The translations under genes were made by a program, and so were the position numbers. Shown one piece after another: positions 1 through 15,668 of a DNA stretch of 64,000 nt; the stretch's first letter is position 1, and every line of letters starts with the position of its first letter. This DNA comes from Enterovibrio gelatinilyticus (GTDB taxonomy: Bacteria; Pseudomonadota; Gammaproteobacteria; Enterobacterales; Vibrionaceae): positions 1 through 64,000 of the forward strand of contig NZ_JAJUBC010000028.1 of the NCBI RefSeq assembly GCF_028683095.1, read 5' to 3'. The notes under the pieces are model-generated. The model searched no databases. It saw only the letters and a list, made by a program, of their open reading frames with translations, and was not told the DNA's origin.

Positions 1-1
1 T

Positions 2-526
2 TTCCTCCTCCCATTCTCTGTTGCCGCTAATGATTTTTCTGGTCATCGGGTGGGTATTGGTTTTACCACTACTGATATTGAAAACACACAAGGTGAGCGT
101 GTTGATTGGGGATCTGGCTTCAAACTCGAGTATGGTTACGACATCAACAGAATCTTCGGTGTAAACCTTTCCTATAGCAACACCAGTGACAGTGTTCAGT
201 ACTATTTCAACTCACAACGTTTCGGTGCAGACCTCAGTACCAATACGTTCAAATTTGACGCTGACATCGGATACACCTTCCAACAGAACAATTTTTCCAT
301 TAAGCCTTATGGCGCAGTCGGTTTTGCGAATTACAAAGACACACTGGATATCCACTTTGGCGATTCCAACTCCTCGTCTCGATCCTATAAAGAGTCAGCG
401 CCTTACTTTGGTATCGGCGTTAGAGGGGCTTTAACTCAAGGTCTCTATGCCGATTTACGACTCGATTACCTGATGGATGATGCATATACCGATCAGTTTT
501 CTTTAACTGTTGGCTATAAATTCTAA
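2..526 (+). CDS. Outer-membrane beta-barrel protein (OmpA-like TM / OmpW-like small porin family), 5' end truncated by window start
   Basis: The frame is open back to the window edge. Alternating hydrophobic/aromatic beta-strand pattern, with a C-terminal ...TVGYKF ending in Phe, typical of OM barrels. An N-terminal ...FSVAANDF looks like a signal-peptide cleavage region. Confidence 0.55.
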   Translation, partial: FLLPFSVAANDFSGHRVGIGFTTTDIENTQGERVDWGSGFKLEYGYDINRIFGVNLSYSNTSDSVQYYFNSQRFGADLSTNTFKFDADIGYTFQQNNFSIKPYGAVGFANYKDTLDIHFGDSNSSSRSYKESAPYFGIGVRGALTQGLYADLRLDYLMDDAYTDQFSLTVGYKF

Positions 527-550
527 CCCTCCGCTATTAGGAAAGATCTC

Positions 551-1042
551 ATGATAAAAAAATTACTCTGTGCGGCGACACTTTTCACTAGCTCCTTTGC
601 CGCTGCGGATGTTCACTTTTCTCCTGACCTAAAAATGGGCTTACAGTGGGGTATTGGCGCGCAGCTGGGGGTTCAAGATGTGATGGGTTTCGAGGCTGTT
701 TATGGCAGCTTTGGTATATCCGACTCTCACTGGTTTTCTGACAAAGAGTCTATCAAACACTACCGAGTCGGTGTGCAGTACGAAGAGAAAAAGTATCAAG
801 CATACTCGGTACAAATGGAGGCAGGACTCGCTGAGTATAAAGGGAGCCGAAATTACTACGGTAGAGACCGCGAGGATCTCAAAGCCTACGGGCCGAGTGT
901 AGCCGCCGCACTAGTGTTTGATTACAACTTACCGATCAAAATACGTTACGGGCTTGAGTTGAATTACTTCCGACACCAAGAGACCTACTTACCAAGTGGT
1001 TTGTCTCCTCAGATCAATGTCGGCGTTATCCTTCCCCTTTAG
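551..1042 (+). CDS. Small outer-membrane beta-barrel protein, tandem paralogue of the upstream gene
   Basis: Signal peptide MIKKLLCAATLFTSSFAAA, then amphipathic beta-strand periodicity rich in Y/G/F. About 163 aa. The start lies 24 bp after the upstream OMP gene. Confidence 0.5.
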   Translation: MIKKLLCAATLFTSSFAAADVHFSPDLKMGLQWGIGAQLGVQDVMGFEAVYGSFGISDSHWFSDKESIKHYRVGVQYEEKKYQAYSVQMEAGLAEYKGSRNYYGRDREDLKAYGPSVAAALVFDYNLPIKIRYGLELNYFRHQETYLPSGLSPQINVGVILPL

Positions 1043-1209
1043 GGAGTGTTATACCCATAAATGGATATACATAATAAATGTGCGCCAACTTCAACCTTTT
1101 AGGGACAGCGCACCTTTGCCATGTTTCTATACCAAAGGGCCAATGTACATTTAGAGACACTCTGGTAAAATGCGCAAAAATTCAAATGTGAGCATGACGA
1201 GAGCCAACT

Positions 1210-2130
1210 ATGCCAATGTATGTTGTGGGACATAAAATCCCTGATTCAGATTCAATCTGCGGTGCAATTGCACTAGCGTACCTGAAAAACCAAATCGAAG
1301 AGCCAGCTATCGCTGCACGTTTGGGTGAACTATCACCTGAAACCGCGTTTATCCTAGAGCGCTTTGGCTTCGAAGCACCAGAGCTGAAACTCAGCTACGC
1401 GGGAGAAGAGGTTTACATCGTTGACCACTCTGAACTGACTCAAGCACCGGATGATATTGCGGAAGCAACCATTGTCGGTATCGTTGATCACCACAAACTG
1501 GGTGACCTGACGACGTCTACGCCTCTAGAGTGTTGGATTCGTCCTGTTGGCTGTTCTAACACAGTTATCAAAATGATGTACGACTTCTACGGCGTCGCTA
1601 TTCCTAAAGATATCGCTGGCATCATGCTTTGCGCGATCCTAAGCGATACTGTGATCTTCAAATCACCGACCTGCACCACTGCAGATATTCGTTGCGTTGA
1701 AGATCTTGCGAAGATCGCAGGCATTGAAGACGTACAAGCACTTGGCATGGATATGTTCAACGTGAAATCTGCGGTTGCTGGTACGCCTGCACGTGACCTT
1801 GTTATGCGTGATTTCAAAGACTTCAACATGAACGGTAACTTGGTAGGTATCGGCCAACTAGAAGTTGTTGACCTGTCTGTTTTTGACGAAATCAAAGCAG
1901 AATTGGAAGCTGATATCGCAGCACTTAAAGAAGAAGGCCAACGCCACTCAGTCATGCTTCTTCTAACGGACATCATGAAAGAAGGCTCTGAGCTACTTGT
2001 TGTTTCTGATGACGTGACCATTGTTGAACGTGCATACGGCCTAGAAACTGAAAATGGCCGAGTTTGGCTTGACGGTGTATTGAGCCGTAAGAAGCAAGTG
2101 GTTCCGCCACTTCAAGACAGCTTCAACTAA
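1210..2130 (+). CDS. ppaC: Manganese-dependent inorganic pyrophosphatase, family II (DHH phosphoesterase)
   Basis: DHH family motifs (HKIPDSDS, IVDHH). The C-terminus SRKKQVVPPLQDSFN closely matches the family II PPase signature tail. 306 aa. Confidence 0.9.
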   Translation: MPMYVVGHKIPDSDSICGAIALAYLKNQIEEPAIAARLGELSPETAFILERFGFEAPELKLSYAGEEVYIVDHSELTQAPDDIAEATIVGIVDHHKLGDLTTSTPLECWIRPVGCSNTVIKMMYDFYGVAIPKDIAGIMLCAILSDTVIFKSPTCTTADIRCVEDLAKIAGIEDVQALGMDMFNVKSAVAGTPARDLVMRDFKDFNMNGNLVGIGQLEVVDLSVFDEIKAELEADIAALKEEGQRHSVMLLLTDIMKEGSELLVVSDDVTIVERAYGLETENGRVWLDGVLSRKKQVVPPLQDSFN

Positions 2131-2151
2131 GTTTTTCCTTTGAAAAATAAT

Positions 2152-2176
2152 AAAGGGCGGCTTCGCCCTTTTTTAA
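2152..2176 (+). terminator. Rho-independent terminator downstream of ppaC
   Basis: aaagggcg-gctt-cgcccttt hairpin followed by a T-run (ttttt). Confidence 0.7.
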
Positions 2177-2311
2177 CGTCCTAATTTTGAACGATGTTTT
2201 TTATTGTGCATTTCTCTTTCCACTTTTTAGTGAAATATTCGACGAATCACTATTGATGGGTGTCACAAAAAAATGCATAATCGTGCAAAATTTAGCCAAG
2301 AGGAAGACACT

Positions 2312-2425
2312 GTGTCACAAAAGATTACTGCCAAATTATCCAAGTACGCCCCACTTTTCGTAATGATGGGTGTCACTATTGCATTTACCATGATCAATGC
2401 AATGTACTGGGGTGGAGTACTCTAA
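2312..2425 (+). CDS. Possible small hydrophobic protein (37 aa; VSQKITAKLSKYAPLFVMMGVTIAFTMINAMYWGGVL)
   Basis: GTG start 6 nt after an AGAGGAAG Shine-Dalgarno. An upstream extended -10-like TGcATAAT sits at ~2283. The predicted product has a single TM-like segment. A terminator follows at 2509-2536. The ORF is below the ORF-track size cutoff. Confidence 0.3.
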   Translation: MSQKITAKLSKYAPLFVMMGVTIAFTMINAMYWGGVL

Positions 2426-2508
2426 TAAGGATACGGTGCGGTGTCATCATTGACACTGCTCTTGCTCAAGTGAATGAGCACTTCCCTCGGCACGTAAACC
2501 GAATGAAT

Positions 2509-2536
2509 AAACCCAAGCCAATCGCTTGGGTTTTTG
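2509..2536 (+). terminator. Rho-independent terminator
   Basis: acccaagc-caatc-gcttgggt hairpin followed by ttttt. Confidence 0.6.
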
Positions 2537-2654
2537 TATATTTGGGATAAAAAGTTATCGCAGATGGACAAATTAGAACGATTTATCGGACGGTGAAAGA
2601 GTTAAGCTTTGCAAGGCGAAAAACTTCAGCCAGCGGATTAAATAGATTCAGAAA

Positions 2655-2684
2655 CGAAAAAAGACGCCTTAGCGTCTTTTTTCT
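2655..2684 (-). terminator. Rho-independent terminator downstream of the minus-strand tRNA-Ser (near-palindromic, likely bidirectional)
   Basis: aagacgc-ctta-gcgtctt hairpin flanked by A-run and T-run on both sides. Confidence 0.65.
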
Positions 2685-2690
2685 TAAATA

Positions 2691-2778
2691 TGGCGGTGAG
2701 TGAGAGATTCGAACTCTCGATACGTTGCCGTATACACACTTTCCAGGCGTGCTCCTTCAGCCACTCGGACAACTCACC
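2691..2778 (-). tRNA. serW: tRNA-Ser (anticodon GGA)
   Basis: The reverse complement GGTGAGTTGTCCGAGTGGCTGAAGGAGCACGCCTGGAAAGTGTGTATACGGCAACGTATCGAGAGTTCGAATCTCTCACTCACCGCCA is near-identical to E. coli tRNA-Ser(GGA). It has a long variable arm, the anticodon loop cCTGGAAag and an encoded 3' CCA. Confidence 0.93.
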
Positions 2779-3133
2779 GTGCTTGTGTCGTTAGACTTGT
2801 CGTCTCAACGGGCGCTACTATAAGTATTTACTCTTTCAGGGTCAATGCTTTGAACAACACGTAACGTTCAATTGCTCGGCATTTAGCCAGCCCCATGCAT
2901 CACTAAACAATCTCAATTAGTAGAGCTCAGAGCCGAACCTTACCTTCAGTTTGAAGAAGGAACCTCAGGTGTGGATAAAATCACGGATACCAGCGGATTG
3001 AAACTCAAATCAATGCTCACAAACCTTCGTAATATCACGTCACAGATTCAACGCGACCCTCAAATTCACAACCCCAATAATAAACCCCAGCATTGCTGCC
3101 GAGGCTCTATGTGTATCGCAACAGAACGTTATA

Positions 3134-4195
3134 TCAAGACAAGGTCTGCTCTAACGCTTTCTTCAACTCCAGCTCTGCCTTTTCTATCACCTGCTGCGCA
3201 TGCTCGCGCTGGGCTCTGCCCTCTTTGACGCGAGACAAGGTGTTATTCAAGGTTTCAATCGTCAGCTGATTCACGGTTTCCAATGAATCCAGATCAAGAA
3301 TGCCACGCTGATAGTTCTCGGCAATTTGCTCTTCCAGCGCCTTGAGCTTCTCGGCATTCTGAACATACTGCTTGTTGGTGTAGTCTTTCACCGCACGCGT
3401 CACCTTCAACGCTTTCTCTTTTTCATAATTGGAAATCGCAATCAAGAACTGGCGTTTCCATAGCGGGAAGGTGTTATGGACGATATCTTGAATATCCTCC
3501 ATCAACATTTTATTGCCTTCCTGCGAGAGGCGAATTTGAGGCGCAGTTTGAATAGCAGCAAGACGCGTCAACTCAAGGTTGTGAACACGCTTTTCAAGAC
3601 GTGCAATCGCTTGAGAAGCATCACGGTACTTTTGCGCATCAAGGGCATCACCACTTTGCTCAGATTGCGCAAGCAAATCAGGCAGGACGTTCTGTGTGAG
3701 ATCGTTCAGTTTGTATTTACCCGCCGCGATGTACTGATCTAACCCCGCAAGCAACTCTAAGTTATGATCATAAAGCGTATCTAGCTGCGTAATATCATGC
3801 GCAAGTTTTACTTCCTGCGCTTCTAAGCTGCCTGATAACTGCTCTAATTGACCTTTCACCGAATCAAAACTCGCCGAGAATTTTTTGAAAGAATCAAAAA
3901 GTTCGCCCACCAACGGAAGCCTCGATAACAGGCTCTTCTTACCAAGGTTGTCGAACTCAGCACTGTCCATGGATGACACCATGGCGTGCAGAATATCTCC
4001 TGCCTCACCGCTGTCACGAACACGGACTTGCTCTAAGACTTCATCAGAGAATGCGGTGATCTTTTCCAACGCACCTTTACCAAAGGTAATCGTGGCAACG
4101 GTATCAAACGCATCAAACTGTTCAGCCAAAGCCACGATTTGAGGTGTCACCTCAACATCCAGCACCTGACTCTGAGGATTCGTCAATTCAGTCAT
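3134..4195 (-). CDS. TelA/YaaN-like toxic-anion-resistance family protein (all-alpha, coiled-coil), last gene of the cassette operon
   Basis: 353 aa, strongly helical and Q/E/L-rich. Its size and composition fit the TelA/KlaA family (PF05816-like). SD GGGAG lies 6 nt upstream of the ATG. The gene starts 15 bp downstream of the PLD gene. Confidence 0.45.
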   Translation of the reverse strand: MTELTNPQSQVLDVEVTPQIVALAEQFDAFDTVATITFGKGALEKITAFSDEVLEQVRVRDSGEAGDILHAMVSSMDSAEFDNLGKKSLLSRLPLVGELFDSFKKFSASFDSVKGQLEQLSGSLEAQEVKLAHDITQLDTLYDHNLELLAGLDQYIAAGKYKLNDLTQNVLPDLLAQSEQSGDALDAQKYRDASQAIARLEKRVHNLELTRLAAIQTAPQIRLSQEGNKMLMEDIQDIVHNTFPLWKRQFLIAISNYEKEKALKVTRAVKDYTNKQYVQNAEKLKALEEQIAENYQRGILDLDSLETVNQLTIETLNNTLSRVKEGRAQREHAQQVIEKAELELKKALEQTLS

Positions 4196-4210
4196 TGGAT
4201 CTCCCTGTCT

Positions 4211-4915
4211 CTATGACGGCTTATGGCAGGGAAACTTCTGCCATAGCGTTTCAAACTGCCTTGAGAACGCAGTGACAAACCTGCGATCATCGGTAAGCGT
4301 AATATCTTCCTGATTATATTTGGAGGCACTGCGCGTCCAGTTAAAACTGCCGTTAATCAGTCTTTGTTCGTCAAATATCGCAAACTTATGGTGCATATGA
4401 TACTGAGTCGTATCAATTTTGACGGCAACGCCTTGTTCGGCGAGGTACTCTACGTCACTCCCTCTGTCGTACATCTTGTCGTTGTCCGTCACGATACGCA
4501 CCTTAATCCCGCGCTTGTGAGCATCAAGAATATGCTTGGTCAAATCGTTGTCTGCAATGGTAAACACGCAGATATCAATGGAATGACGAGCGAGTTTTAG
4601 CTGTTCAATAATACCCGCAGCACACGTTCTCCCAGGCGAGAACCAACTCGTTGCGGTTTCCGCTGAACTCGCGCTCATGATGTTATCTAGCACTTTCACA
4701 ACGCGTTCCAGCCAACGTACCAGAGCTGCAGCATCGCCTTGGTTTACGATTTCTTTCTGCACCAATTTGAAACTCAAATTACGCAGATAAGAACGGTCTT
4801 CATCGCCTAACACCGATTCAGCAAGCTCAGCTTGAAGCTCTCGGCGTTCATTGTCGTCTAAGCGGTAATCTTCAATCGAGGCTTCCAGCCACGCCGACCA
4901 TTTTTGTCGATTCAT
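4211..4915 (-). CDS. Phospholipase D-like (single HKD motif) Nuc-type phosphodiesterase/nuclease-family protein
   Basis: The C-terminal domain carries HMHHKFAIFD...INGSFNWT, the canonical HxK(x4)D(x6)GSxN PLD/Nuc motif, with a single copy. There is a ~100-aa N-terminal helical extension. The ATG directly abuts the upstream stop (TAAATG), with a GGAGG SD inside the upstream gene's last codons. Confidence 0.7.
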   Translation of the reverse strand: MNRQKWSAWLEASIEDYRLDDNERRELQAELAESVLGDEDRSYLRNLSFKLVQKEIVNQGDAAALVRWLERVVKVLDNIMSASSAETATSWFSPGRTCAAGIIEQLKLARHSIDICVFTIADNDLTKHILDAHKRGIKVRIVTDNDKMYDRGSDVEYLAEQGVAVKIDTTQYHMHHKFAIFDEQRLINGSFNWTRSASKYNQEDITLTDDRRFVTAFSRQFETLWQKFPCHKPS

Positions 4916-7900
4916 TTAATTGCCTCCTTGGCTGTTACCACCAAAGCGGGCAACATGTTGGTTCAGCATGGCGAGCTGTTGTACTACTTGTCCTGCACGG
5001 TCTTCGGAATCACCCATCATTTGTTGGCGTTGATATCCGTCAGTGATTTCCTGCCAACGTCCTTGTTGTTCCGGTGTCATATCACCACGCAGTTCAGCAA
5101 GTTTCAGCAGGTTTTCTTCCGTACCCGCCGCCAATGTCTGGGCTTCACCTTGATAGTGATCTTGCAGCATGGTGTTGAGTTCTTCATCGGTCATGACTGA
5201 CGATATTTTCTCGGCAAGTTTGTTCATGTTTCGATAAGAACCCTGCAGCTTAAACGGTGGCTCAACACGATACTGATCCGCCGTAGCGGCGGATTTGATG
5301 TACTGCTGATTCACCTTGAGCACGGTTTGCTGTGCCATCATCATTTTTTGCAGCGTAGAGACAATCTCATTGGATTCGGTCGCCGAATACGAATGGCTCA
5401 TGTCACTCAGTGCAATGCTCTCCCCTTCTGCCATGCGAACAAAGCGGTAAAGGTCATTCAAGTCTCTGGTCGCTAGCGGTGCAAGTACAGAATTCGACGT
5501 CAGAGAGTTCTCAATGAAGCTGAGTTCGAACGCTTGCTTCTGATCAGACAGCATGTCACCAAGGTTGTAGATATCTGCACGGTTCGACAACATATCCGGA
5601 ATTCGGAACGCTTCACCGGTTTCGGTATACGGGTTACCCGCCATCACAACCGCGAACTTCTTGCCACGCATGTCATAGGTTTTGGTTTTGCCTTTCCACG
5701 TACCTTCAATGCGACGTGTTCCATCACACAGTGAAATGAATTTCTGAAGAAATTCAGGGTGGGTGTGCTGAATATCATCAAGATACAAGAGCACGTTGTT
5801 ACCCATTTCAAAGGCGAGGTTAATTTTTTCGATTTCGCGCGCGGCGTTTTGATCAGGCGCATCAGCAGGATCAAGTGAGGTGGCTTGGTGCCCAATAGAC
5901 GGGCCATTGATCTTCATAAACACCAAGCCAAGCTTGTGTGCTACGTATTCGATCAAGGTGGTTTTACCGTAACCCGGCGGCGAAATCAGTAGCAGCATCC
6001 CCATCAAATCGGTGCGTTTCTTATCACCCATGGTGCCCATCTGTTTGGCAAAGTTATCGCCAATCAATGGCAGATAGCTTTCGCTGATGAGTTTGTTTCG
6101 AACAAAGGATGTGAGAGGACGAGGTTTGAATTCCCCGAGTCGGAAATCATCTTTCGCGGTATTAAGGAGCTCTGTGCGTTGATTGAGGTAAGCATCAAAC
6201 TGCGGAACCACCGCAGTTCTGTGATGCTCGTTACGCTGAATAAAATCATCTAACACCAGTGTTAACTGACCTTTTTCAATGCGATCATGCTCACCCAATA
6301 AGCCGTCAATGCTGCAAAGCAGCGAGAAGTCGACACTGCCGATGGAGAAATTAGAACATGATTTCAACACAGTGATGGTCGCGGCTTCCAGAACAAACGC
6401 TTCGCCATACTGCTTACGAGACGTATAAGCAGTCAACCATTGTTTGTGATCAGCAAACGCTGTTTCAATGGCTTCATCAGCTTGATGCCAACCCAGGCTG
6501 CGACGAAACTGAAGGTAGTCTTCACAAAGTGTTAGGGCATCCTGACTGACTTCAATGTTGAGTTCACTCTGACCCAGTAAGTTCACCAGATACTCTGCAG
6601 CCTCATTCGCTTGTTCAGCCTCGAGTAACGCCACCAGCTGAGTTTGCAACAGTTGATAAGCCTCTGACGAATTCAAATGTTCACGCAATAGCTGCGCATT
6701 GATGGCTTGTTGACGATAATGTTCCACTATTTGGCTATCTTGAGCGAGCAACCACAGCAACGCAGAGGAACGGGCTGATTGGCTGAATCGTAGCAATCCC
6801 GCTTGCTGGTAGATAGGTAACACTTTGTCCAAAATACGAATGGCATCGTTGTCGTGAATACCTTTCACATAACCTTCTTTGTAGCGAGGTGCAGCGAATT
6901 TTTGTATGCACTCACTCAACGTGCCTTCTTTTTGATCGGCATAGAGCTTATCGAGACTCAACCCATCGGTATTGAGTTCAGCACCGTGCAGGATCAAGTA
7001 CGCCAAATATTCTGCGCGATACACGTCTTCGCTTTCTGATGCCACATCCAAACGGGACATAGATTGGAGCGTTAGGAAGGTTTCATCTTCAACAGATTGG
7101 TAAAAATCCGTACCCGAAATGTGCGTAGACAATTGACCGTCATGGTCAACAAGACTGAGATCGAGCGGCTGTTGATTCACACTAAAACGGTGCTTACCAA
7201 GACGAAGGACTTTACCTCCCTGCTCGAAGATATCCTGATTGTCACGCAGCGAACGCAAAGACTGATCCTGCAGTGACTTGATCTTCGAATCGACACTGTC
7301 AGCCTTCACACTGTCACCCAACTCTCGAATCGTTGTCGACAGTTGATGCAGTTTCAGCACCATTGCATCTGTTGCGAAGTAGCTGTTAAGCCCCGCCACA
7401 TCATCAAAGCGTTCAACGCGCTTTTCGATGCTCGACATGGTGACGTTAGCAGCTTGCAGAAGGTTCTGAATACGACGCTGTTGAGCCGCAATCAATTGCT
7501 GTTTGTGATTATCGAGCGTTGATTGAATTTCATCTCGTTTGGCATAAATTTCAGCGAGAAACTGGTCAAAGTCAGCAAAACGAGATTCAAGCTTGTCCAA
7601 TTGACCAACCAGTTTCGCTAGCTGATTGTCACAGTCGTCAGGACTTGTTGCCTGCTCCATCGCACTGCTAACAGATTGACTAAGCAACTTAAACTGCGCA
7701 CTGAATTCAGCTTGCGCTTCTTCACTTTGAAGGCCTTTAGACTTACCACGAAGTTTCGCGGAGACAGTATTGAGCATTGACGACACTTCCGTCGTCAAAT
7801 CTAAAATCCGTGTCGCTTGTGTCGGGTCATCCGTTTCAATATCCGTGACTTCTTCCGTCACCAATTGAAGTTCGCTTCTTAGCGTTTCAACCTGATCTTG

Positions 7901-9796
7901 CAGGATCTGAATTTCAGCGGTTTTATCCACCTCTTCAAGCTGCGTTTCAATGGTCTGGATTTGCTTTTTAAAAGGCAGGTAAGCCTTTTCATCCTGCAGA
8001 AGGTTTAGCAACTGCAGATTCAGACTTTCGCGCTGCTCCTGAAGTGTTTCCAGTAAGGCATCAATCCGCTCTTCATCAATGTAATGCTGCTGACGCAACG
8101 CCATCACTGCACCCACCTGCCCTTTCACTTCTGAAAGCAAGGTAAGCAAAGTGTTGGCTTGTTCTTTCGGTGCAAGTTTGATCTTTCCGATCAGGTCAGA
8201 AACGATCCTGTTCTGATCTTCAATACTTTGTGCGGCATGACTTTGAAGCTGCTGAACCTTGGCGAATTCATCGATGATTTTGTCCGCCGTGCCCATCAGT
8301 TCACTAATGGCACCTCCCATGCCTAACGCGTATTCGTGGCCGAGCCAGGTGTAGTGATCAAGCGTTGATTGACATTGCTTGAGAAGCATTTCAAACGCCG
8401 CCTGCGTCACCTCCTCTGTCTGTGCTAATTGGCAAATTGACAAAACAGACGATAAGGCGCGAACCAGTTCAGTATTGCCAAGATTAAATAGCGGGCTGCT
8501 GCCATCACCTTTGGCATTTTCGAGGGCATAGTGTTCTGGCGTTGAAAACGGCGTATCCCAAATACGCAAAGGGTGGATAGTGGAGGCTTCCGCATTTTCA
8601 GACAATTGAAAAACAAGGAAGCGTCCATCGGGATAAAGGCTATAACCATGGCTTTCCATGGGTGCTTCGAACTTTTTCTCAATCAGGTTATAAGTGAAGG
8701 CAATGTAGTAACCGTCCACCGCATTGAAGAAGAAATACAGAATGTCTTCACCGTTGGGTGAAATGACTTTTTGGAAGAATTTGAGATTATTGGCAGGAAA
8801 ATCGAACTGCTTGCTTTCACCATTGGCGAGCACATAACCGTTTGCGTAAAGCACACCATGATCTTCAGGCAAGGATTTTGCGCTTTCACGCAGCGCATCT
8901 GCCCGTGTCACGGATTGATTAAGTGGGTTGTAAAGAAAGTAGCGGCTATGTTTTTCGCGGTTTGGCTTCACCCGCAATGCAATCAGCTCGCCAATAAAGG
9001 CATAGTCGATTTGCGCATCGGCAATACTCTGATGCGCATCTTCCACATCTTCGCGATAAATGCCTTTTCCTTCTGAGGTGTTGTCTTCAACCTTGATGGT
9101 CAAATCCCCACCCACACACTCAACGAATAGCTTATCTCGAATAGACACATGCGGATGTTCACCCAACACATGATCTTCACGCGTCGTAGCTATCCAATCA
9201 AAATCATGCTGTGTCGCGCTTTCGAGCGGTGCATGTCCGTAAGAATCCATGTACTCAGCGGAATTGGCATTCAACTGGAAGCGAAACACCTTACGGTCTT
9301 CGGGTCGGCTGCCAATTTGAAACGCGATATATAGAATACTCTCCTGACGCGAGATTTGAGATAAGCGTGCGTCCCGGTAATAGGTAAACAGCTCGGTAAA
9401 CTCATGCACGAAGCGCGCATCATTCAAGAAGCTGTTTTCTAACGTTAAAGACTCGACACGAAACGTACCTTCATTTTCATGAAGTTGATAAAGGCCAAAC
9501 ACATCATCCAATGATGGCGCTGCCTTCATACCTACCTGCACGTGGTAACCAAACAACAATTGTTGGTTTACCTGCGCCATATCGATGGGAATACATTTGG
9601 CATCAGTTTGTACATTGGCTTTACCAATCAGCGAGAGCTCTTGGCCACCAAATACGTCCTGACGTTGATGATTGAAAGACTGAGAAAGGGTTTTTAGCTG
9701 GTTGCCCTGTTGGGACAGGCGGGATTTGAGAACCTCGTACGCACCGCCTTCACTCACAGCTTGTTGAGTCGTCTCTGACATAATAATACCTATCAA
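4916..9796 (-). CDS. Giant (1626 aa) uncharacterized protein: N-terminal beta-rich domain, ~650-aa coiled-coil and C-terminal MoxR-like AAA+ ATPase
   Basis: The C-terminal region carries Walker A LISPPGYGKTTL (codons ~5950-5985), Walker B NVLLYLDDIQH and a sensor-1-like AVVMAGNPY, the pattern of the MoxR/AAA_5 clade. The central region is heptad-rich (LQ..LE..). The ORF-track start is TTG 9796, with an AGAGG SD 5 nt upstream. An alternative ATG at 9781 (MSETTQQ) has an AGGU SD. Confidence 0.6.
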   Translation of the reverse strand: MIGIIMSETTQQAVSEGGAYEVLKSRLSQQGNQLKTLSQSFNHQRQDVFGGQELSLIGKANVQTDAKCIPIDMAQVNQQLLFGYHVQVGMKAAPSLDDVFGLYQLHENEGTFRVESLTLENSFLNDARFVHEFTELFTYYRDARLSQISRQESILYIAFQIGSRPEDRKVFRFQLNANSAEYMDSYGHAPLESATQHDFDWIATTREDHVLGEHPHVSIRDKLFVECVGGDLTIKVEDNTSEGKGIYREDVEDAHQSIADAQIDYAFIGELIALRVKPNREKHSRYFLYNPLNQSVTRADALRESAKSLPEDHGVLYANGYVLANGESKQFDFPANNLKFFQKVISPNGEDILYFFFNAVDGYYIAFTYNLIEKKFEAPMESHGYSLYPDGRFLVFQLSENAEASTIHPLRIWDTPFSTPEHYALENAKGDGSSPLFNLGNTELVRALSSVLSICQLAQTEEVTQAAFEMLLKQCQSTLDHYTWLGHEYALGMGGAISELMGTADKIIDEFAKVQQLQSHAAQSIEDQNRIVSDLIGKIKLAPKEQANTLLTLLSEVKGQVGAVMALRQQHYIDEERIDALLETLQEQRESLNLQLLNLLQDEKAYLPFKKQIQTIETQLEEVDKTAEIQILQDQVETLRSELQLVTEEVTDIETDDPTQATRILDLTTEVSSMLNTVSAKLRGKSKGLQSEEAQAEFSAQFKLLSQSVSSAMEQATSPDDCDNQLAKLVGQLDKLESRFADFDQFLAEIYAKRDEIQSTLDNHKQQLIAAQQRRIQNLLQAANVTMSSIEKRVERFDDVAGLNSYFATDAMVLKLHQLSTTIRELGDSVKADSVDSKIKSLQDQSLRSLRDNQDIFEQGGKVLRLGKHRFSVNQQPLDLSLVDHDGQLSTHISGTDFYQSVEDETFLTLQSMSRLDVASESEDVYRAEYLAYLILHGAELNTDGLSLDKLYADQKEGTLSECIQKFAAPRYKEGYVKGIHDNDAIRILDKVLPIYQQAGLLRFSQSARSSALLWLLAQDSQIVEHYRQQAINAQLLREHLNSSEAYQLLQTQLVALLEAEQANEAAEYLVNLLGQSELNIEVSQDALTLCEDYLQFRRSLGWHQADEAIETAFADHKQWLTAYTSRKQYGEAFVLEAATITVLKSCSNFSIGSVDFSLLCSIDGLLGEHDRIEKGQLTLVLDDFIQRNEHHRTAVVPQFDAYLNQRTELLNTAKDDFRLGEFKPRPLTSFVRNKLISESYLPLIGDNFAKQMGTMGDKKRTDLMGMLLLISPPGYGKTTLIEYVAHKLGLVFMKINGPSIGHQATSLDPADAPDQNAAREIEKINLAFEMGNNVLLYLDDIQHTHPEFLQKFISLCDGTRRIEGTWKGKTKTYDMRGKKFAVVMAGNPYTETGEAFRIPDMLSNRADIYNLGDMLSDQKQAFELSFIENSLTSNSVLAPLATRDLNDLYRFVRMAEGESIALSDMSHSYSATESNEIVSTLQKMMMAQQTVLKVNQQYIKSAATADQYRVEPPFKLQGSYRNMNKLAEKISSVMTDEELNTMLQDHYQGEAQTLAAGTEENLLKLAELRGDMTPEQQGRWQEITDGYQRQQMMGDSEDRAGQVVQQLAMLNQHVARFGGNSQGGN

Positions 9797-9840
9797 TCCC
9801 GCCTCTTAAGAAGCGGGATTCTGCGAGAAGAAATGAAGGG

Positions 9841-11931
9841 TTATTTATCGTCTGATGACGGTTCCATTGAGCTTTGAATTTTCTTTAACAGCTCAGTTGC
9901 CCCACCTTGCGAGTTCAACAAACTTGCTAACGCAACATTGCTCAAGTCACTGCTTTTCAGTTCAGTGTTCTCCAAAATAGCTTTCAAATCTTCTGGTAGG
10001 CTTCGGTTTCCATCCACATACTCGGACACCAATGGGTTCAGCACTTTCGATTGCTCAAATTTGGCATCAATTGCAGAGGCATCCATGATGGTACGGCGAA
10101 TCTGTTCCATACCTTCACCACCAAACAGACGGATATCAGCTTTTGACAGTGCCTCTGCCAATGCTTTCGCGTTTTCACTGACCACGGTTTTCTGTGCATC
10201 AATGCGCGCGATTTCCAGATCTTTATCTTGTTGCAGTTGCATCACCCACTTATCGTGGTCGCGCGTATGCTCATCGTATTGTTGCGCCGCTTCAAAGCGT
10301 GCAGTTTGTGCTTCTGCTTCTGCCAAGCCCTTAGCACGAAGTGCCTGCGCTTCTGCTTCACCTGCACTTTGCATGGCAAACGCTTCTGCCTCGCCAGTTT
10401 CTTTAATGGCCTGAGCGCGCTCACGATCCACTTCGACTTCAGCAAGACCCGTTGCACTGATCATTTCTTTCTCAGCATGTGCCATACGCTCTTTGGCTGC
10501 GGCTTCACGTTCTTTCGCCACATAGCCTGCTTCAGCACGTTTGGTCGTGACAATATGCTCCGCTTCCGCTTCGCGTGTCTTCACGGCTAGGTCATTTTCC
10601 GCATCACGGGTTTTCACTTTAAGTTCGGCTTCATTTTCAATCAGCAAACGCTCTGCACGTTCTTTTGCTGCATCTTTCTCAGCGCGAGCACCAACCAATA
10701 ATTCAAGCTGCGCGGCTTCTGCAGCCGCTTCTGCTTCAATCATCTTCACGCGTTTCTCACGGCCTACACGCTCATTAACACGAAGGTTTTCAGTCTCTTC
10801 CTCTTCACGCGCAATTTTACGTTCAATCTCAACACGCTGAGAGCGTGTTTCGGAAACAGATTTAAGCGCTTCTTCAACCGTTGTCTCTTTCTGCATTTCA
10901 CGCTCAGCCACTTCCGTCGCTGTACGTACTTTTTCTGTTTCAACAGAACGGGTCAGCTCTTCTTGCTGAATTGCCACTTGGCGCTGATTGGCGATACGGG
11001 TCATTTCAACTTCCATTTCCACGCTTTCACGCTTCTTGGACACTTCTTCTTCCGTTTCTAATTTCGCCAACTCAGTGACGCGCAAATACTCCTGTCGCTT
11101 CTCAGCCGCTAGCGCTTCTTCTTGCGCGGTAATAATGTCGACTTCACGTTGAGTACGCGCAATACTCTCTTTTTCTTGCTTATCTAACTGCAGACGGTTT
11201 GCTTCCGCTTCAACGTTTTTCTTCTTCATCGTTGTGCGTTCATCCTGACGGATAGCATTCGTTTCTGTGTTCTTTTGAGCAGTAATTGCTGAGATTTTAC
11301 GAATACCTTCAACATCAAGAATGTTGTCCGGGCTATGAGCATCCAGCGCGGTTTGGTCAACTTTATCGATAACCACATCGTAGATTTTGAAACCATCCAT
11401 TTCGCTGCCGATAACTTCAACAACCGCATCACGGAACGCTCGGCGATTGGTCAGCAATTCTTCAAACTCAAATTGCTTTACCGCCGTTTTCAATGCTTCT
11501 GAAAATTTAGGTTGGAAGTGTTCTTTTAAACGTTCAAGATTCGAGGCTTCATGTGCTGTGAAGAGTTTGGCTACACGAACAATGTCTTCTTCTTCATGAT
11601 TTACACCGATATAAAAATCAACTCTTAAGTCCGCTCGGATGTTGTCTCGGCAGTGAAGACCTTCATATTCTTCGCCTTCCTGATCTTTACGACCACTGCG
11701 TACAACAGAGATTTTCTTACGTGTAATGTCCATATATTCGAATCGGTTAACAATCGGCCATACGAATGTGCCGGTTAACGAAGCGCGTGTACGGTGAAGT
11801 CCGTTCACAATAAGTGCGTCACCCTCACCACGTACTTTTTTATAACGAGAGGTGAGAAATACCATGACGAGAAGGAAAACGCCGATGCCAATGCCGATAA
11901 AAATGATGCTAGGGGAAATTTCCATTTCCAA
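9841..11931 (-). CDS. yqiK: Flotillin-like SPFH/band-7 domain protein (YqiK family) with long EA-rich coiled-coil
   Basis: An N-terminal TM helix is followed by an SPFH domain (…ALIVNGLHRTRASLTGTFVWPIVNRFEYMDI…), then ~400 aa of Glu/Ala/Lys/Arg-rich coiled-coil. The gene is paired with a YqiJ-like gene immediately upstream, as in the E. coli yqiJK operon. Confidence 0.8.
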   Translation of the reverse strand: MEMEISPSIIFIGIGIGVFLLVMVFLTSRYKKVRGEGDALIVNGLHRTRASLTGTFVWPIVNRFEYMDITRKKISVVRSGRKDQEGEEYEGLHCRDNIRADLRVDFYIGVNHEEEDIVRVAKLFTAHEASNLERLKEHFQPKFSEALKTAVKQFEFEELLTNRRAFRDAVVEVIGSEMDGFKIYDVVIDKVDQTALDAHSPDNILDVEGIRKISAITAQKNTETNAIRQDERTTMKKKNVEAEANRLQLDKQEKESIARTQREVDIITAQEEALAAEKRQEYLRVTELAKLETEEEVSKKRESVEMEVEMTRIANQRQVAIQQEELTRSVETEKVRTATEVAEREMQKETTVEEALKSVSETRSQRVEIERKIAREEEETENLRVNERVGREKRVKMIEAEAAAEAAQLELLVGARAEKDAAKERAERLLIENEAELKVKTRDAENDLAVKTREAEAEHIVTTKRAEAGYVAKEREAAAKERMAHAEKEMISATGLAEVEVDRERAQAIKETGEAEAFAMQSAGEAEAQALRAKGLAEAEAQTARFEAAQQYDEHTRDHDKWVMQLQQDKDLEIARIDAQKTVVSENAKALAEALSKADIRLFGGEGMEQIRRTIMDASAIDAKFEQSKVLNPLVSEYVDGNRSLPEDLKAILENTELKSSDLSNVALASLLNSQGGATELLKKIQSSMEPSSDDK

Positions 11932-11949
11932 CTCCTGATTTATATTCCG

Positions 11950-12564
11950 TTATGCTTTCGCTACCACGTAGCGATTTGAAGTGTCATCTTTGAAGACGAT
12001 GACCACTTCTTCTCCGTATTGAATCGTGCTTTCGTCTTGCAGCATGACATCAAGTAAAAACTCATTACCTTGATGCAATACCACGACTTCCCCTCTTTCT
12101 TTGTTAACGACGTTGCTGTGAACCCGCGCTTTCAGGCCAATATAGTCAACCTGAGCAAACGCCTTTTTACGGTCGAACAATGGCGCGAGTGGCTTTAACA
12201 ACAACGCAGATATTGCAAGGGAGAGGTAAGCAACGATTGGGATTGATGCGAGATCAATCAAAAGATTTGTAACGCCTGAAAACAGGCTGATATTCATTTG
12301 TGCGGAGTAAAACGACATGACGGTTGCGATAAAACACGATACACACAACGCAACCATAAGAGGGACTTTTGATAACACTTGAGGCAAAAGCAGACCTGCT
12401 CCCGGAATGTTATCAAGGTCAAAAATGTCGAGATCAGCCGTGAAGCCTTCCACCACATTAAAAACCAGATCTATGAGCATAATGAGGAAAAACACTACAA
12501 ACGGAATAAAAAATACGTTTGTAGGAAATGCCATCAGCATGCCCAGAAACTCACCAACTGCCAT
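11950..12564 (-). CDS. yqiJ: YqiJ/NfeD-like inner-membrane protein (membrane anchor plus C-terminal OB-fold), flotillin partner
   Basis: Hydrophobic N-terminal two-thirds. The C-terminus …VVIVFKDDTSNRYVVAKA resembles the E. coli YqiJ tail (…RFIVAKA). It ends 18 bp upstream of the flotillin gene. Confidence 0.7.
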   Translation of the reverse strand: MAVGEFLGMLMAFPTNVFFIPFVVFFLIMLIDLVFNVVEGFTADLDIFDLDNIPGAGLLLPQVLSKVPLMVALCVSCFIATVMSFYSAQMNISLFSGVTNLLIDLASIPIVAYLSLAISALLLKPLAPLFDRKKAFAQVDYIGLKARVHSNVVNKERGEVVVLHQGNEFLLDVMLQDESTIQYGEEVVIVFKDDTSNRYVVAKA

Positions 12565-12868
12565 ATAACGTTACTCTAAACAAAGTTTTATGTTTTATCG
12601 TTGTTTTGATGTCTAAGCTTTTTACAAAGCTGTCCAAGACTAACTGAGAATGGTCAGTTTTAAACCTATATAACAGGCTTATATGATTCGGTTCAAAAAA
12701 ATAGGCCGCCAAATTCTTATACAAGACACAAACTCGACCTTACAGCCAATGATTAAGAAATGAGACAATTACTGAGTGCTCTTCATTGCGATGACGATAA
12801 ATTTTTCGTTGAAATGAGCCTCATCGCAGAAACGAAAAAGCCCCAGCATTGCTGCTAGGGCTTCGAAT

Positions 12869-12912
12869 ATCGCGGTGAGGGAGACATGACTCGTCATTCT
12901 GCTACTCTCACC
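12869..12912 (-). pseudogene. Probable decayed tRNA-Ser remnant (internally deleted)
   Basis: atcgcggtgagggagacatgactcg… resembles the 3' end of the intact tRNA-Ser (tggcggtgagtgagagattcgaactctcg), and …ctctcacc resembles its 5' end. It is preceded by the same 'cagaaacgaaaaa + GC-hairpin' spacer architecture as the intact copies. Confidence 0.3.
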
Positions 12913-12946
12913 TTTCTGCTTCTTATGTTTTTCATAAGCCAGAAAC

Positions 12947-12977
12947 GAGAAAACCCAAGCATTTCTGCTTGGGTTTT
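12947..12977 (-). terminator. Rho-independent terminator downstream of the second tRNA-Ser
   Basis: cccaagc-atttct-gcttggg hairpin, followed by a T-run on the minus strand (gaaaa on plus). Confidence 0.6.
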
Positions 12978-12982
12978 GAATG

Positions 12983-13070
12983 TGGCGGTGAGTGAGAGAT
13001 TCGAACTCTCGATACGTTGCCGTATACACACTTTCCAGGCGTGCTCCTTCAGCCACTCGGACAACTCACC
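12983..13070 (-). tRNA. serX: tRNA-Ser (anticodon GGA), second copy, 88/88 identical to the copy at 2691-2778
   Basis: Identical 88-nt sequence. The upstream block (gacttatcgtctcaacgg…aactatag) is conserved with the copy-1 upstream block (gacttgtcgtctcaacgg…tactataag), likely the promoter region. Confidence 0.93.
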
Positions 13071-13270
13071 GTTTTGTTGGACTTATCGTCTCAACGGGGC
13101 GTAACTATAGGGAAGCGCTTTAGTCAGGTCAACGATAAATCGCAAATTTGAGCGCAAGTGTTTAAGTTTCCATCGGCTTGAGTTGTTTTTACACTGCGTT
13201 ACGCATTTTGCTCTCGCATTCTCATTCTGGCTGATAGAATATTACCCAACACTGGAACAGAGAACGAATC

Positions 13271-13846
13271 ATGACCAACTCGCTAGCACAATTTATCACT
13301 GAAAACGGATTAGAGCCTTTTGTACTGTCCGCTGAACAAACGGAAGGGTTTGTCACCGCCATGGCTGCGGCTCCTAACCTTATCGACCCAAGCGAGTGGC
13401 TTGCATTTATGTGGGGCGGTGAAGACGAAGCACCGTTCAATAACCCAGAACAACTCGAAGCGTACGCAGGTATCATCGTCGACATGTGGAACGCACAACG
13501 CCAAGCTCTGCTCGCTAATGAATGGACATGGCCAGAAGCCTGCGCATTAAGCGAAGCCGAGATTGTGAACCAAGCAACCCGTGAATACTGCGAAGGTATG
13601 CTTCAAGGCTGGACCCTAGCTCGTGATGATTGGGAAACCATTATGCCTGAGGAGTCGCCAGAGAATGCATTGCTTGGCGGCGTACTCCTTTCTATTAGCT
13701 TGCTGTTTGACCCAGAGTCCGCACTCGCGACGATGGACGAACTCGGTGCGGCAGAACTCGCGCAGTTTGAGGAAATATTTAACGGTATGCCCGTCATGCT
13801 ATGTGGTTTAACAATGCGCGGATACCAAATGGTAGAGCAGCAATAA
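13271..13846 (+). CDS. UPF0149 (YgfB/YecA N-terminal-like) family protein
   Basis: 191 aa, acidic and helical, with size and composition typical of UPF0149. It lacks a SEC-C motif. Confidence 0.5.
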   Translation: MTNSLAQFITENGLEPFVLSAEQTEGFVTAMAAAPNLIDPSEWLAFMWGGEDEAPFNNPEQLEAYAGIIVDMWNAQRQALLANEWTWPEACALSEAEIVNQATREYCEGMLQGWTLARDDWETIMPEESPENALLGGVLLSISLLFDPESALATMDELGAAELAQFEEIFNGMPVMLCGLTMRGYQMVEQQ

Positions 13847-14184
13847 TCTTAAACTAACTCGCTCACTGCAATGACTGACATTGACAAGCAATACCAATAA
13901 TAAAGCGGCCTAAACGGCTTATGCCATTCAGATTCTTCCTGCAGTCATACATTTACGCAGGAAGAATCATCAAGAGCTAAAGAAGAGATTGGTGTAGCGA
14001 GCTATTCTGTTTACAAATCTCTGACGCAGCTATTGCCGATTCTACCCAGCAAAAGTGACTGAATACTTGTTCTGATTGGTATTGTTTTGCGCAAACTTTT
14101 CGCGCAGTTTGCCAACAATCCTGATATAGTCCTGCCCCTGTTTTTATCCGCCATTACCCTGGCATTACATTCTGGAATTTTCCT

Positions 14185-15570
14185 GTGACCACACAAGCAT
14201 TCTCTACCCTGCCGTTGAAAGCCGAATTGCTTTCTACACTTACTGATATTGGCTACACGGAAATGACGCCTATCCAAGCACAAAGCCTTCCAGCCATTAT
14301 CGATGGGAAAGATGTCATTGGTCAGGGTAAAACAGGCTCAGGTAAAACTGCGGCATTTGGCCTTGGCTTGCTCAATCGCCTAAATGTAAAACGCTTCCGC
14401 GTTCAATCACTGGTTTTGTGCCCAACACGCGAGCTGGCAGATCAAGTTGCTATTGAGCTTCGTAAATTAGCCCGTGGTATCCACAACATCAAAATACTGA
14501 CGCTGTGTGGCGGTGTTCCAATGGGACCACAGATTGGCTCGCTTGAGCATGGTGCTCACATTATTGTTGGCACACCAGGCCGTATTCTTGATCACCTTGA
14601 TAAAGGCCGTCTGTCACTAGAAGAAGTGAACACACTGGTTCTTGATGAAGCTGACAGAATGCTTGAGATGGGTTTCCAACCTGCTTTGGATGCTATTTTC
14701 CAAGACATGCCAGCAAACCGCCAAACACTGCTATTCAGTGCGACCTTCCCAACGCAGATCCAAAGCATCAGCCGTCAAATCATGACCGCTCCAGTGATGG
14801 TTAAAGTTGAGTCAAACCACGATAGCAGCAGCATTTCTCAGCACTTTTATGAGTGCAACAGTAACAAAGATAAAATGCGTGCCCTACAGCTATTGCTGCT
14901 CAAACACCAACCAGAAAGCGCCGTGGTATTTTGTAATACCAAACGTGACGTTAAAGATGTAGCTGCAGTGCTCGATAACGAAGGTTTCTCTGTAGTTGCA
15001 CTGCATGGTGATCTTGAGCAACGCGACCGTGACCAAATGTTACTCAAGTTTGCTAACAAAAGTGTCACCGTTATGGTTGCTACCGACGTCGCGGCACGCG
15101 GTCTAGATATTGAAGCGCTAGATGCGGTAATCAACTACGACATGGCATTTGATACCGAAGTACACATTCACCGTATCGGTCGTACAGGTCGAGCTGGAAG
15201 CGAAGGTGCAGCACATACCTTCTTTGGCAAAGAAGATGGTTATAAGATTGCATTACTGCAAGACTACCTAAACCATGACATTAAAGGCGAAGCGCTTCCA
15301 GACGATTCAGCCATGAACAACATGCCTCGCACTCCTTTGATGACAACATTGCACATCGAAGCAGGTAAGAAAAACAAAGTTCGCCCAGGCGATATTCTCG
15401 GTGCATTGACCGGTGATGATGGAATCCAGGGCAGCGAAGTGGGTAAGATTAAAGTCACCGATTATCGTTCGTATGTTGCAGTAAAACGAAATGTTGCAAA
15501 ACACGCTTTGAATAAGCTGTCTTCAGGCAAAATCAAAGGCCGTACTTACCGCGTTTGGCAATTACGCTAA
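14185..15570 (+). CDS. dbpA: ATP-dependent RNA helicase DbpA (DEAD-box, 23S rRNA-specific)
   Basis: DEAD-box motifs: Q-motif, GKTGSGKTAAF, DEAD, SAT and HRIGRTGRAG. A C-terminal DbpA RNA-binding domain is present. The N-terminus aligns with E. coli DbpA. GTG start. Confidence 0.9.
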   Translation: MTTQAFSTLPLKAELLSTLTDIGYTEMTPIQAQSLPAIIDGKDVIGQGKTGSGKTAAFGLGLLNRLNVKRFRVQSLVLCPTRELADQVAIELRKLARGIHNIKILTLCGGVPMGPQIGSLEHGAHIIVGTPGRILDHLDKGRLSLEEVNTLVLDEADRMLEMGFQPALDAIFQDMPANRQTLLFSATFPTQIQSISRQIMTAPVMVKVESNHDSSSISQHFYECNSNKDKMRALQLLLLKHQPESAVVFCNTKRDVKDVAAVLDNEGFSVVALHGDLEQRDRDQMLLKFANKSVTVMVATDVAARGLDIEALDAVINYDMAFDTEVHIHRIGRTGRAGSEGAAHTFFGKEDGYKIALLQDYLNHDIKGEALPDDSAMNNMPRTPLMTTLHIEAGKKNKVRPGDILGALTGDDGIQGSEVGKIKVTDYRSYVAVKRNVAKHALNKLSSGKIKGRTYRVWQLR

Positions 15571-15605
15571 TCGAACAAGCTATATAGTGCGCCATATCGC
15601 ACTGT

Positions 15606-15652
15606 AAAAAATGCCCTCATCCAGAAATGGCATGAGGGCATTTTCGTTTTTT
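15606..15652. terminator. Bidirectional rho-independent terminator between convergent dbpA and the DUF336 gene
   Basis: atgccctcat-ccagaaatggc-atgagggcat 10-bp stem, followed by ttttcgtttttt. It is A-rich on the other side. Confidence 0.75.
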
Positions 15653-15668
15653 GTCCAAGCTGACTTTC

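Follow-up and report, generated by a model that had tools for sequence, protein, structure and literature searches.

A giant AAA+ ATPase encoded beside a YqiK-type flotillin in Enterovibrio gelatinilyticus: domain organisation, conserved gene linkage and a possible role in membrane stress

Introduction

A 64,000 nucleotide (nt) stretch of the Enterovibrio gelatinilyticus genome (contig NZ_JAJUBC010000028.1, positions 1 to 64,000; the whole stretch is referred to here as the window) encodes a protein of 1626 amino acids (aa) that ends in an AAA+ ATPase domain and lies directly downstream of a flotillin-like gene. What does such a large ATPase do, and what does its position beside a flotillin say about it? 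An initial reading of the sequence (the original prediction) regarded the protein as an atypical fusion of a beta-rich domain, a coiled coil of ~650 aa and a MoxR-like ATPase, and suggested a scaffold or sensor. Databases widely mislabel the family to which it belongs as 'DNA repair ATPase' or 'Smc'. The evidence given below argues against that label, which is probably wrong because the ATPase family is always encoded beside a flotillin-like membrane scaffold; the handling of membrane stress is more likely. The explanation favoured here, which we regard as having about an even chance of being right, is that the protein is the cytoplasmic, ATP-driven remodelling subunit of a flotillin-based membrane-stress module.

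Both the architecture and the operon are already known from Pfam, from NCBI annotation and from one comparative-genomics paper. Ravi et al. (2024, PMC11237479) described the same operon and ATPase architecture computationally, including abbreviated operons without PspA, and proposed a role in membrane-linked macromolecular assembly. The ATPase goes unmentioned in SPFH papers that deal with prokaryotic SPFH evolution or with Pseudomonas aeruginosa. The role of bacterial flotillins is unsettled, and a large ATPase that follows one flotillin subtype directly, at every informative locus and in several phyla, offers a biochemical handle on it. Added here are a fold-level placement of the predicted ATPase structure on the CbbQ/NorQ branch, an invariant DD Walker B motif, a corrected domain map, quantified operon statistics, a TelA-containing operon variant and the MitoPLD-like nature of the HKD partner.

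Family membership and conserved gene linkage

The window protein is a full-length member of the DUF3686/DUF7902/AAA 'DNA repair ATPase' family. It shares the family's three Pfam regions and their order, falls in the same length class (about 1600–1900 aa) and shows 44–88% identity to the listed family members, which have the same set of Pfam families. A search of 1.84 billion proteins with the N-terminal domain gave 618 clusters (50% identity), in which full-length members were consistently about 1600–1900 aa, and a scan of one genome per species found the family in at least 599 species. No architectural difference from the family was seen, and an organisation first taken to be atypical is therefore the standard one for a family with its own Pfam entries; as it is catalogued by Pfam and NCBI and was described by Ravi et al., it is neither new nor unusual. 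The original prediction had also allowed for the N-terminal part belonging to a well-characterised family. It does belong to a named family, DUF3686, but not to a well-characterised one.

The hosts are mainly Gammaproteobacteria, with further members in Betaproteobacteria, Myxococcota, Zetaproteobacteria and Actinomycetota, while large plasmids or secondary replicons add Deinococcus, Streptomyces and Hymenobacter. The family was found on 13 of 72,556 plasmid records, none of them predicted to be conjugative and nearly all very large (the smallest is 169 kb and some are chromosome-sized), and on 0 of 50,697 phage records. A DNA-similarity search of 5,426 E. coli genomes detected no homologue, though E. 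coli K-12 has yqiJK. Within the Vibrionaceae, protein identity tracks taxonomy.

Gene linkage was counted by calling open reading frames (ORFs) in 85 loci and searching them with profiles built from seed loci, the denominators being the informative loci. YqiJ-like and flotillin-like genes are found immediately upstream of the ATPase gene, on the same strand, in 72/72 loci, so the proposed link to a flotillin is both real and obligate. The same triad of YqiJ, flotillin and ATPase occurs in Bacteroidota, Actinomycetota and Deinococcota. Around this core the gene content varies: a YjfI (CesT-like)–PspA pair is present in 39/72 loci, and the genes downstream of the ATPase include those for TelA (21/77), an HKD protein (22/77) and a rhomboid intramembrane protease (15/77), the last standing directly after the ATPase gene where present. 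PspA (with the YjfI/CesT-like gene) and/or TelA, families annotated as membrane or toxic-compound stress proteins, occur in 54 of the 69 loci having both flanks. They are not strict alternates, as five loci carry both. A distant homology between TelA and PspA, which would explain the occurrence of either, was considered and rejected (hhalign probability 0.1%, no detectable homology). All-against-all clustering of the ORFs from the 85 loci gave no recurrent partner beyond YqiJ, SPFH, PspA/YjfI, TelA, the phospholipase D (PLD, HKD) protein and rhomboid; in particular, the VWA gene that might be expected beside a MoxR-type ATPase is conserved in none of them.

Two further genes were seen near some of the operons. 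An ORF of ~79 aa lies between the flotillin and ATPase genes in locus L001 (7676–7915) and in 12 other loci, mostly of Pseudomonas and relatives; Pfam does not match it, and the window, with its 44-nt gap at this place, lacks an equivalent. A DEAD-box helicase gene stands no more than a few kb from the operon in the window (14185–15570, plus strand), in L001 (15688–17118), L013 and L017, and one is present also in the Neptuniibacter locus L003. It was rejected as a conserved neighbour, since a BLAST search with the helicase of the window gave matches in just three other loci among the 85, all from Pseudomonas or Phytopseudomonas.

Operon partners in the window

In the window, the ATPase gene is the third of five tightly packed genes on the minus strand (Table 1). 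The HKD gene begins with an ATG immediately next to the ATPase stop codon, and 15–44 nt separate the other genes. The GC content of the operon equals the window average, and none of the five proteins has a Pfam VWA match.

The product of the first gene has three hydrophobic segments by hydropathy and a beta-rich C-terminal domain, and is matched to E. coli YqiJ by hhalign (84%, E=7e-6, 132 columns). The second gene encodes the flotillin partner, which has one N-terminal transmembrane segment (aa 2–30), an SPFH-sized domain and a helical region of ~420 aa rich in E, A, K, R and Q. Its identification as a flotillin in the original prediction was correct, the family profile aligning with E. coli YqiK at 99.9% probability (E=1.3e-33, 375 columns). 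The protein has no match to the Pfam Band_7 or Flot hidden Markov models even at E≤10, and among seven diverse members of its family these models match 0/7 and 1/7, the single match having E=0.005. Database sources name it YqiK, SPFH, flotillin or 'peptidase'.

Downstream of the ATPase, the single-HKD protein retains an intact HxK(x)4D(x)6GSxN motif. Its best solved relatives are the MitoPLD/Zucchini proteins ('mitochondrial cardiolipin hydrolase', E=4.6e-29), compared with 6e-11 for Nuc and 3e-9 for NucT. The ~95 residues at its N-terminus form an extension without a match. The operon closes with a TelA-family gene, for whose product no solved relative was found.

Domain organisation of the ATPase

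The predicted ORF is real and uninterrupted, and lies on the minus strand, which had not been stated. Its length of 1626 aa is counted from a TTG at 9796, and the stop codon is at 4916–4918. An alternative ATG at 9781 gives a protein of 1621 aa, and the near-identical NCBI entry ('DNA repair ATPase [Enterovibrio norvegicus]', 1621 aa) begins at this ATG, five codons after the TTG. The gap between the flotillin and ATPase genes (9797–9840, minus strand) holds an inverted repeat, CCCGC-TTCTTAAGAG-GCGGG, within which an AAGAGG stands 5 nt ahead of the TTG; the ATG used by NCBI, 15 nt past the TTG, has a poorer Shine-Dalgarno sequence. The ATPase is soluble, with no transmembrane segment predicted (Kyte-Doolittle 19-residue mean, maximum 1.32).

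Profile matches and AlphaFold2 (AF2) models together suggest that the protein is made up of at least four parts (Table 1), because aa 881–1230 are modelled as a compact helical domain and not as a rod. The ~1200 residues ahead of the ATPase, originally described as being without a recognisable motif, match Pfam DUF3686 (PF12458, aa 34–482, E=2.7e-158, profile positions 2–447 of 448) and DUF7902 (PF25472, aa 604–687, E=1.8e-17). An AF2 model of aa 1–500, built from 60 homologues, has a mean predicted local distance difference test (pLDDT) score of 91.5 and shows a long N-terminal helix, ~27 strands within aa 55–414 and C-terminal helices, of which helices 420–500 fold back against the first helix. 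This bears out the beta-rich N-terminal region of ~470 aa in the original prediction. Foldseek comparison of the model with the PDB gave 164 matches at E≤1e-3, with TM-scores of only 0.25–0.42; among the matches listed, most are beta-propellers (Sec12, DCAF1, paraoxonase, CyRPA, Kelch). We read the module as a helical bundle into which a divergent propeller is inserted, in agreement with the 'beta-propeller repeats' described by Ravi et al. (2024, PMC11237479). Homologue alignments of the putative propeller contain many invariant His, Asp, Glu and Asn motifs.

The stalk that follows is shorter than first thought. A home-made, crude heptad score exceeded the 95th percentile of shuffled sequences only for ~aa 520–840, with a dip at 681–720 and several Pro/Gly breaks along the stretch. 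The coiled-coil status of the stalk (aa 500–880) was judged by this score, the AF2 models covering aa 1–500 and aa 881–1626. Searches of PADLOC gave only weak, coiled-coil matches of the ATPase, to JetC (E=1e-4) and LmuB (5e-3), at aa 582–810. The model of aa 881–1626 has a pLDDT of 84.5, and in it aa 881–1230 (mostly >90) are predicted to form a compact bundle in which no helix exceeds 37 residues, together with small sheets. The predicted coiled coil of ~650 aa is thus reduced to about half, and a fully extended rod would reach ~50 nm at most, instead of ~100 nm. The middle domain (about aa 851–1230) has no sequence match in Pfam, NCBIfam or the PDB, and its alignments show a strongly conserved block, GGxVIKLGxHRFSVNxQxLDLT. 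The C-terminal extension carries an invariant block in homologue alignments, PFKLQGSYRNMNK, beyond which the homologues vary in length.

The AAA+ module

The Walker A, Walker B and AGNP (sensor-1) motifs were correctly placed near the C-terminus: each occurs once, all within the last ~350 residues, so that there is a single P-loop. A pre-sensor-1 beta-hairpin is predicted at aa 1362–1375, and a candidate arginine finger is found in the sequence NRAD, with lid helices after it. Both Asp residues of the Walker B DD are invariant in 60/60 aligned homologues, and the usual catalytic Glu is absent across these, which suggests slow hydrolysis and a switch-like behaviour.

The assignment to the MoxR-like proteins stands in part. 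In the predicted structure, the ATPase core and lid are closest in three dimensions to MoxR members of the CbbQ/NorQ type. Sequence comparisons are weaker in this respect. Pfam AAA_5 (PF07728) and AAA (PF00004) match at aa 1268–1391, AAA_5 scoring 35.5 bits (cut-off 22) and the generic AAA model 34.8, whereas AAA_3 reaches 15.4, under its cut-off of 27. When the family profile was aligned by hhalign with single E. coli sequences, RuvB, ClpX, FtsH and Lon ranked above McrB, YehL and RavA (probabilities of 96% for RuvB, 38% for YehL and 9% for RavA). Sequence searches of the PDB, with the whole protein and with a profile of the AAA region, matched only ~35–50 residues around the P-loop, in p97, NVL, Rix7 and RuvB, and being confined to these surroundings they give no help with the AAA+ clade. 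Two MoxR hallmarks fail, as there is no VWA partner and the Walker B motif is DD, not hhhhDE with its catalytic Glu. A cautious statement would be that the ATPase represents a distinct AAA+ lineage with a pre-sensor-1 hairpin, the predicted fold of which is closest to CbbQ/NorQ.

Table 1. Features of the five-gene operon and of the giant ATPase, with positions in the window.
Feature	Position	Strand	Basis or description
YqiJ/DUF1449-type (NfeD-like) membrane protein, 204 aa, first gene	11950..12564	-	NCBI name DUF1449; hhalign
YqiK-type flotillin/SPFH protein, 694–696 aa, upstream of ATPase	9841..11931	-	hhalign vs E. coli YqiK
Giant ATPase, whole ORF	4916..9796	-	ORF; closest database cluster 'DNA repair ATPase' (Enterovibrio norvegicus)
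N-terminal module, aa 34–482 (DUF3686)	8351..9697	-	Modelled as long helix (aa 19–49), then ~27 strands (aa 55–414), read as divergent beta-propeller
Heptad-rich helical stalk, about aa 500–850	7247..8299	-	Includes DUF7902, aa 604–687 (DNA 7736–7987)
Middle domain, about aa 851–1230	6107..7246	-	Modelled as small beta-sheet (aa 882–901), then compact all-helical domain
AAA+ module, about aa 1255–1460	5417..6034	-	Walker A, Walker B, sensor-1, lid helices
Walker A, GYGKTT, aa 1275–1280	5957..5974	-	Single occurrence
Walker B, LLYLDD, aa 1336–1341	5774..5791	-	Single occurrence
Sensor-1, AGNP, aa 1386–1389	5630..5641	-	Single occurrence
NRAD	5573..5584	-	Candidate arginine finger
C-terminal helical extension, about aa 1461–1626	4919..5416	-	Helical in AF2 model, pLDDT 60–90
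Single-HKD phospholipase-D-superfamily protein, 234 aa, downstream of ATPase	4211..4915	-	Pfam PLDc_2, E=1.1e-30
TelA-family protein, 353 aa, last gene	3134..4195	-	Pfam TelA, E=3.1e-77

Genomic setting

Two near-identical tRNA-Ser(GGA) genes on the minus strand (2691–2778 and 12983–13070) bracket the five-gene operon as direct repeats. The repeats span 2684–2812 and 12976–13098, with promoter-like sites at 2845–2817 and 13132–13104 (TTGACC-17-TATAGT), and each copy is accompanied by a leader repeat of 28 nt and, downstream, by similar hairpins. The stretch between the two copies contains no integrase gene. An Rfam scan of positions 1–16000 at gathering thresholds gave no match, whereas ARAGORN finds the two tRNA-Ser genes there. 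Related GC-rich palindromic hairpins of the AAACCCAAGC...GCTTGGGTTT type are located at 3079–3106, 12835–12862, 12948–12975 and 2509–2533; they are found past the TelA gene and past both the upstream and the downstream tRNA, and may be shared terminators or a REP-like element. Bracketing by tRNA genes was seen in 0/12 related loci, two of which carry unrelated tRNA genes near one end, and it could reflect an old insertion into a tRNA array. No flank synteny with other Vibrionaceae was found.

Proposed role of the ATPase

The linkage is invariant, the ATPase is soluble and its two constant partners are a single-pass and a polytopic membrane protein, which together place the ATPase at the cytoplasmic face of a flotillin assembly. 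The giant AAA+ protein would be one of three core components of the module, the others being a scaffold made of the YqiK-type flotillin (SPFH) and the YqiJ/NfeD-like membrane protein; in this genome a MitoPLD-like HKD enzyme and TelA join them. The C-terminal AAA+ domains, with their CbbQ/NorQ-like fold, would form a ring, a hexamer by analogy with MoxR, and couple ATP binding and hydrolysis to pulling on or remodelling a partner. The putative beta-propeller, carried on a segmented helical stalk, would substitute for the separate VWA adaptor of ordinary MoxR systems and dock the machine on the cytoplasmic flotillin assembly or on clients found there, namely stress proteins of the PspA or TelA type. 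The outcome would be a specialised patch of membrane that is assembled, turned over or repaired under envelope stress, and the HKD enzyme, where present, would alter the local lipid composition, for example by hydrolysing cardiolipin. Of this scheme, the domain make-up, the gene linkage and the soluble or membrane character of the products are observed, and the ring, the contact with flotillin, the substrate and the part played in stress are inferred.

This reading is favoured because the triad is linked without exception, because stress-family neighbours accompany most of the loci, because the genes are tightly packed and because the family is nearly absent from mobile elements. It is supported also by the independent comparative genomics that proposed a membrane-linked assembly (PMC11237479), and a membrane role of the kind implied by the scaffold or sensor suggestion is a reasonable reading of the locus.

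Several observations weigh on the other side. Ten of the 69 loci with both flanks have no PspA, TelA, PLD or rhomboid gene nearby, so a client is not fixed in cis. The invariant motifs of the propeller would also fit an enzyme, or a sensor of a ligand or metal. With its DD Walker B, the ATPase might act as a slow switch and not as a motor, and its AAA+ clade is ambiguous when judged by sequence. The HKD protein may act on nucleic acids, since its closest solved relatives have both lipid and RNA as substrates and nucleases come next. With a tRNA-Ser gene on either side and flanks that are non-syntenic with those of other Vibrionaceae, the operon in this genome looks accessory rather than housekeeping. 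Literature searches on the family found no experimental study of any member.

A bolder form of the same proposal is put forward tentatively, and we think it somewhat doubtful. In it, the giant ATPase would be the dedicated motor of the bacterial flotillin assembly, a MoxR-like ring whose propeller-on-stalk adaptors grip the flotillin cage, or the PspA or TelA recruited to it, and which builds, opens or dismantles the cage upon membrane damage while the MitoPLD-like enzyme remodels cardiolipin locally. If true, a prokaryotic flotillin would for the first time have an enzymatic activity obligately linked to it, and a MoxR-type ATPase would have a new way of engaging a substrate that needs no VWA adaptor.

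Two other readings keep the membrane platform and change its purpose. A membrane-anchored defence against phages or other invaders, acting by abortive infection, is unlikely. The flotillin/YqiJ platform and the ATPase would sense infection, the HKD protein would be a nuclease effector and TelA would contribute as in Ter/TelA-linked phage resistance. The HKD protein does match nuclease-type models of NCBIfam and PADLOC (NucT, DrmC, DpdK, Mokosh MkoB/C; the PADLOC ones weakly) as well as the solved nucleases Nuc and NucT, but it is far nearer to MitoPLD/Zucchini than to Nuc, and with a gene in only 22/77 loci it is not a core effector. Large coiled-coil ATPases are common in defence systems and the weak JetC and LmuB matches could be taken in that sense; against this, the ATPase, flotillin, YqiJ and TelA have no match in PADLOC-DB v2 beyond coiled-coil noise. 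The site between two tRNA-Ser genes, flanks that differ among related genera and a patchy distribution, exemplified by the absence from E. coli, would also suit such a system. Against a defence role stand window neighbours that are ordinary metabolic and regulatory genes (judged from ORF translations alone), a GC content equal to that of the window, the absence of the family from phages and its near absence from plasmids, and protein identities that follow taxonomy within the Vibrionaceae. Membrane-protein quality control, one particular version of the membrane module in which damaged proteins take the place of PspA or TelA as clients, is improbable too. Here an AAA+ unfoldase or extractor in or beside the flotillin cage would deliver damaged membrane proteins to proteases, like HflK/C with FtsH. 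Members of the MoxR-type group, the closest in fold, remodel folded complexes instead of threading substrates, which tells against it, as does the lack of any Pfam protease domain in the ATPase or the core triad. A rhomboid gene directly follows the ATPase gene in some loci, as the idea would have it, but is a minority accessory. Also in its favour are the name 'peptidase' given to the flotillin partner by several sources and the best hhalign sequence matches of the ATPase profile (RuvB, ClpX, FtsH and Lon). Flotillin microdomains of Staphylococcus aureus are reported to stabilise unfolded proteins (PMC11222466), and HflK/C is reported to cage FtsH (PMC12330512), both of which count for this variant.

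The two remaining readings are very improbable. If the annotation were correct, an SMC-like or RuvB-like ATPase would act in DNA repair, as stated in the Pfam description of DUF3686 and in names used by NCBI and UniRef ('ATPase involved in DNA repair', 'Chromosome partition protein Smc'); literature searches found no paper backing the name. The weak RuvB_N and RuvB matches over the Walker A segment are limited to about 45–50 residues at the P-loop; for the RuvB equivalog, a score of 20.6 bits over 47 residues compares with a cut-off of 282. The ATPase is a C-terminal AAA+ domain and lacks the split ABC head that flanks the coiled coil of SMC proteins; a Walker A is missing from the N-terminus, and no DNA-binding domain was detected. 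A nuclease-like HKD gene does adjoin, but repair genes do not recur nearby in the 85 loci, and the gene is coupled to membrane proteins in every informative locus. Nor is it at all probable that the protein is a conventional MoxR chaperone, inserting a metal cofactor or activating an enzyme by means of a VWA/MIDAS adaptor whose gene lies at a different genomic site. The fold closest to CbbQ and NorQ, an AAA_5 score above the cut-off and invariant acidic and His motifs in the propeller that could bind metal would all agree with this. However, a VWA gene is conserved in none of the 85 loci, known MoxR systems offer nothing comparable to the N-terminal extension of 1,250 residues or to the invariant flotillin linkage, the AAA_3 score falls short of its cut-off, and in the hhalign comparison E. 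coli RavA and YehL match least well.

Comparison with known systems

SMC, MukB and JetC share with the giant ATPase a long, helical, heptad-rich segment. They differ from it in fold, as the giant ATPase is AAA+ and not ABC, has its ATPase at one end only and is without the hinge and head arrangement. CbbQ/NorQ-type MoxR proteins are alike in the predicted fold of the ATPase core and lid; the giant ATPase departs from them in having no VWA/MIDAS partner, in its ~1,250-residue N-terminal extension, in a DD in place of DE and in falling short of AAA_3, and its sequence profiles show no preference for the E. coli MoxR proteins.

HflK/C with FtsH is an SPFH cage that works with an AAA+ machine, and Vps4 is an AAA+ protein acting on polymers of the PspA/ESCRT-III type. 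Both serve as precedents for the proposed module, the likeness being a functional analogy only, with no homology past the AAA+ fold: the giant ATPase has neither a protease domain nor an MIT domain, and its contact with flotillin or PspA is putative.

The first two genes of the window operon are homologous to YqiJ and YqiK, as encoded by yqiJ-yqiK of E. coli, with yuaF-floT of Bacillus subtilis as the comparable pair. In E. coli K-12 the operon ends after yqiK, with no ATPase, and the flotillin partner in the window, at about 695 aa, is longer than E. coli YqiK (553 aa).

Another close counterpart is the PSP-associated operon of Ravi et al. (PMC11237479), which is alike in core genes, gene order and ATPase architecture, and which was reproduced here in Pseudomonas, Reinekea and Hymenobacter. 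The window locus differs from it in having no YjfI/CesT-PspA pair and in ending with the HKD gene and TelA, the latter unmentioned in that paper (term count 0). This ending is common to the Vibrionaceae, Neptuniibacter, Oceanimonas and Oceanisphaera.

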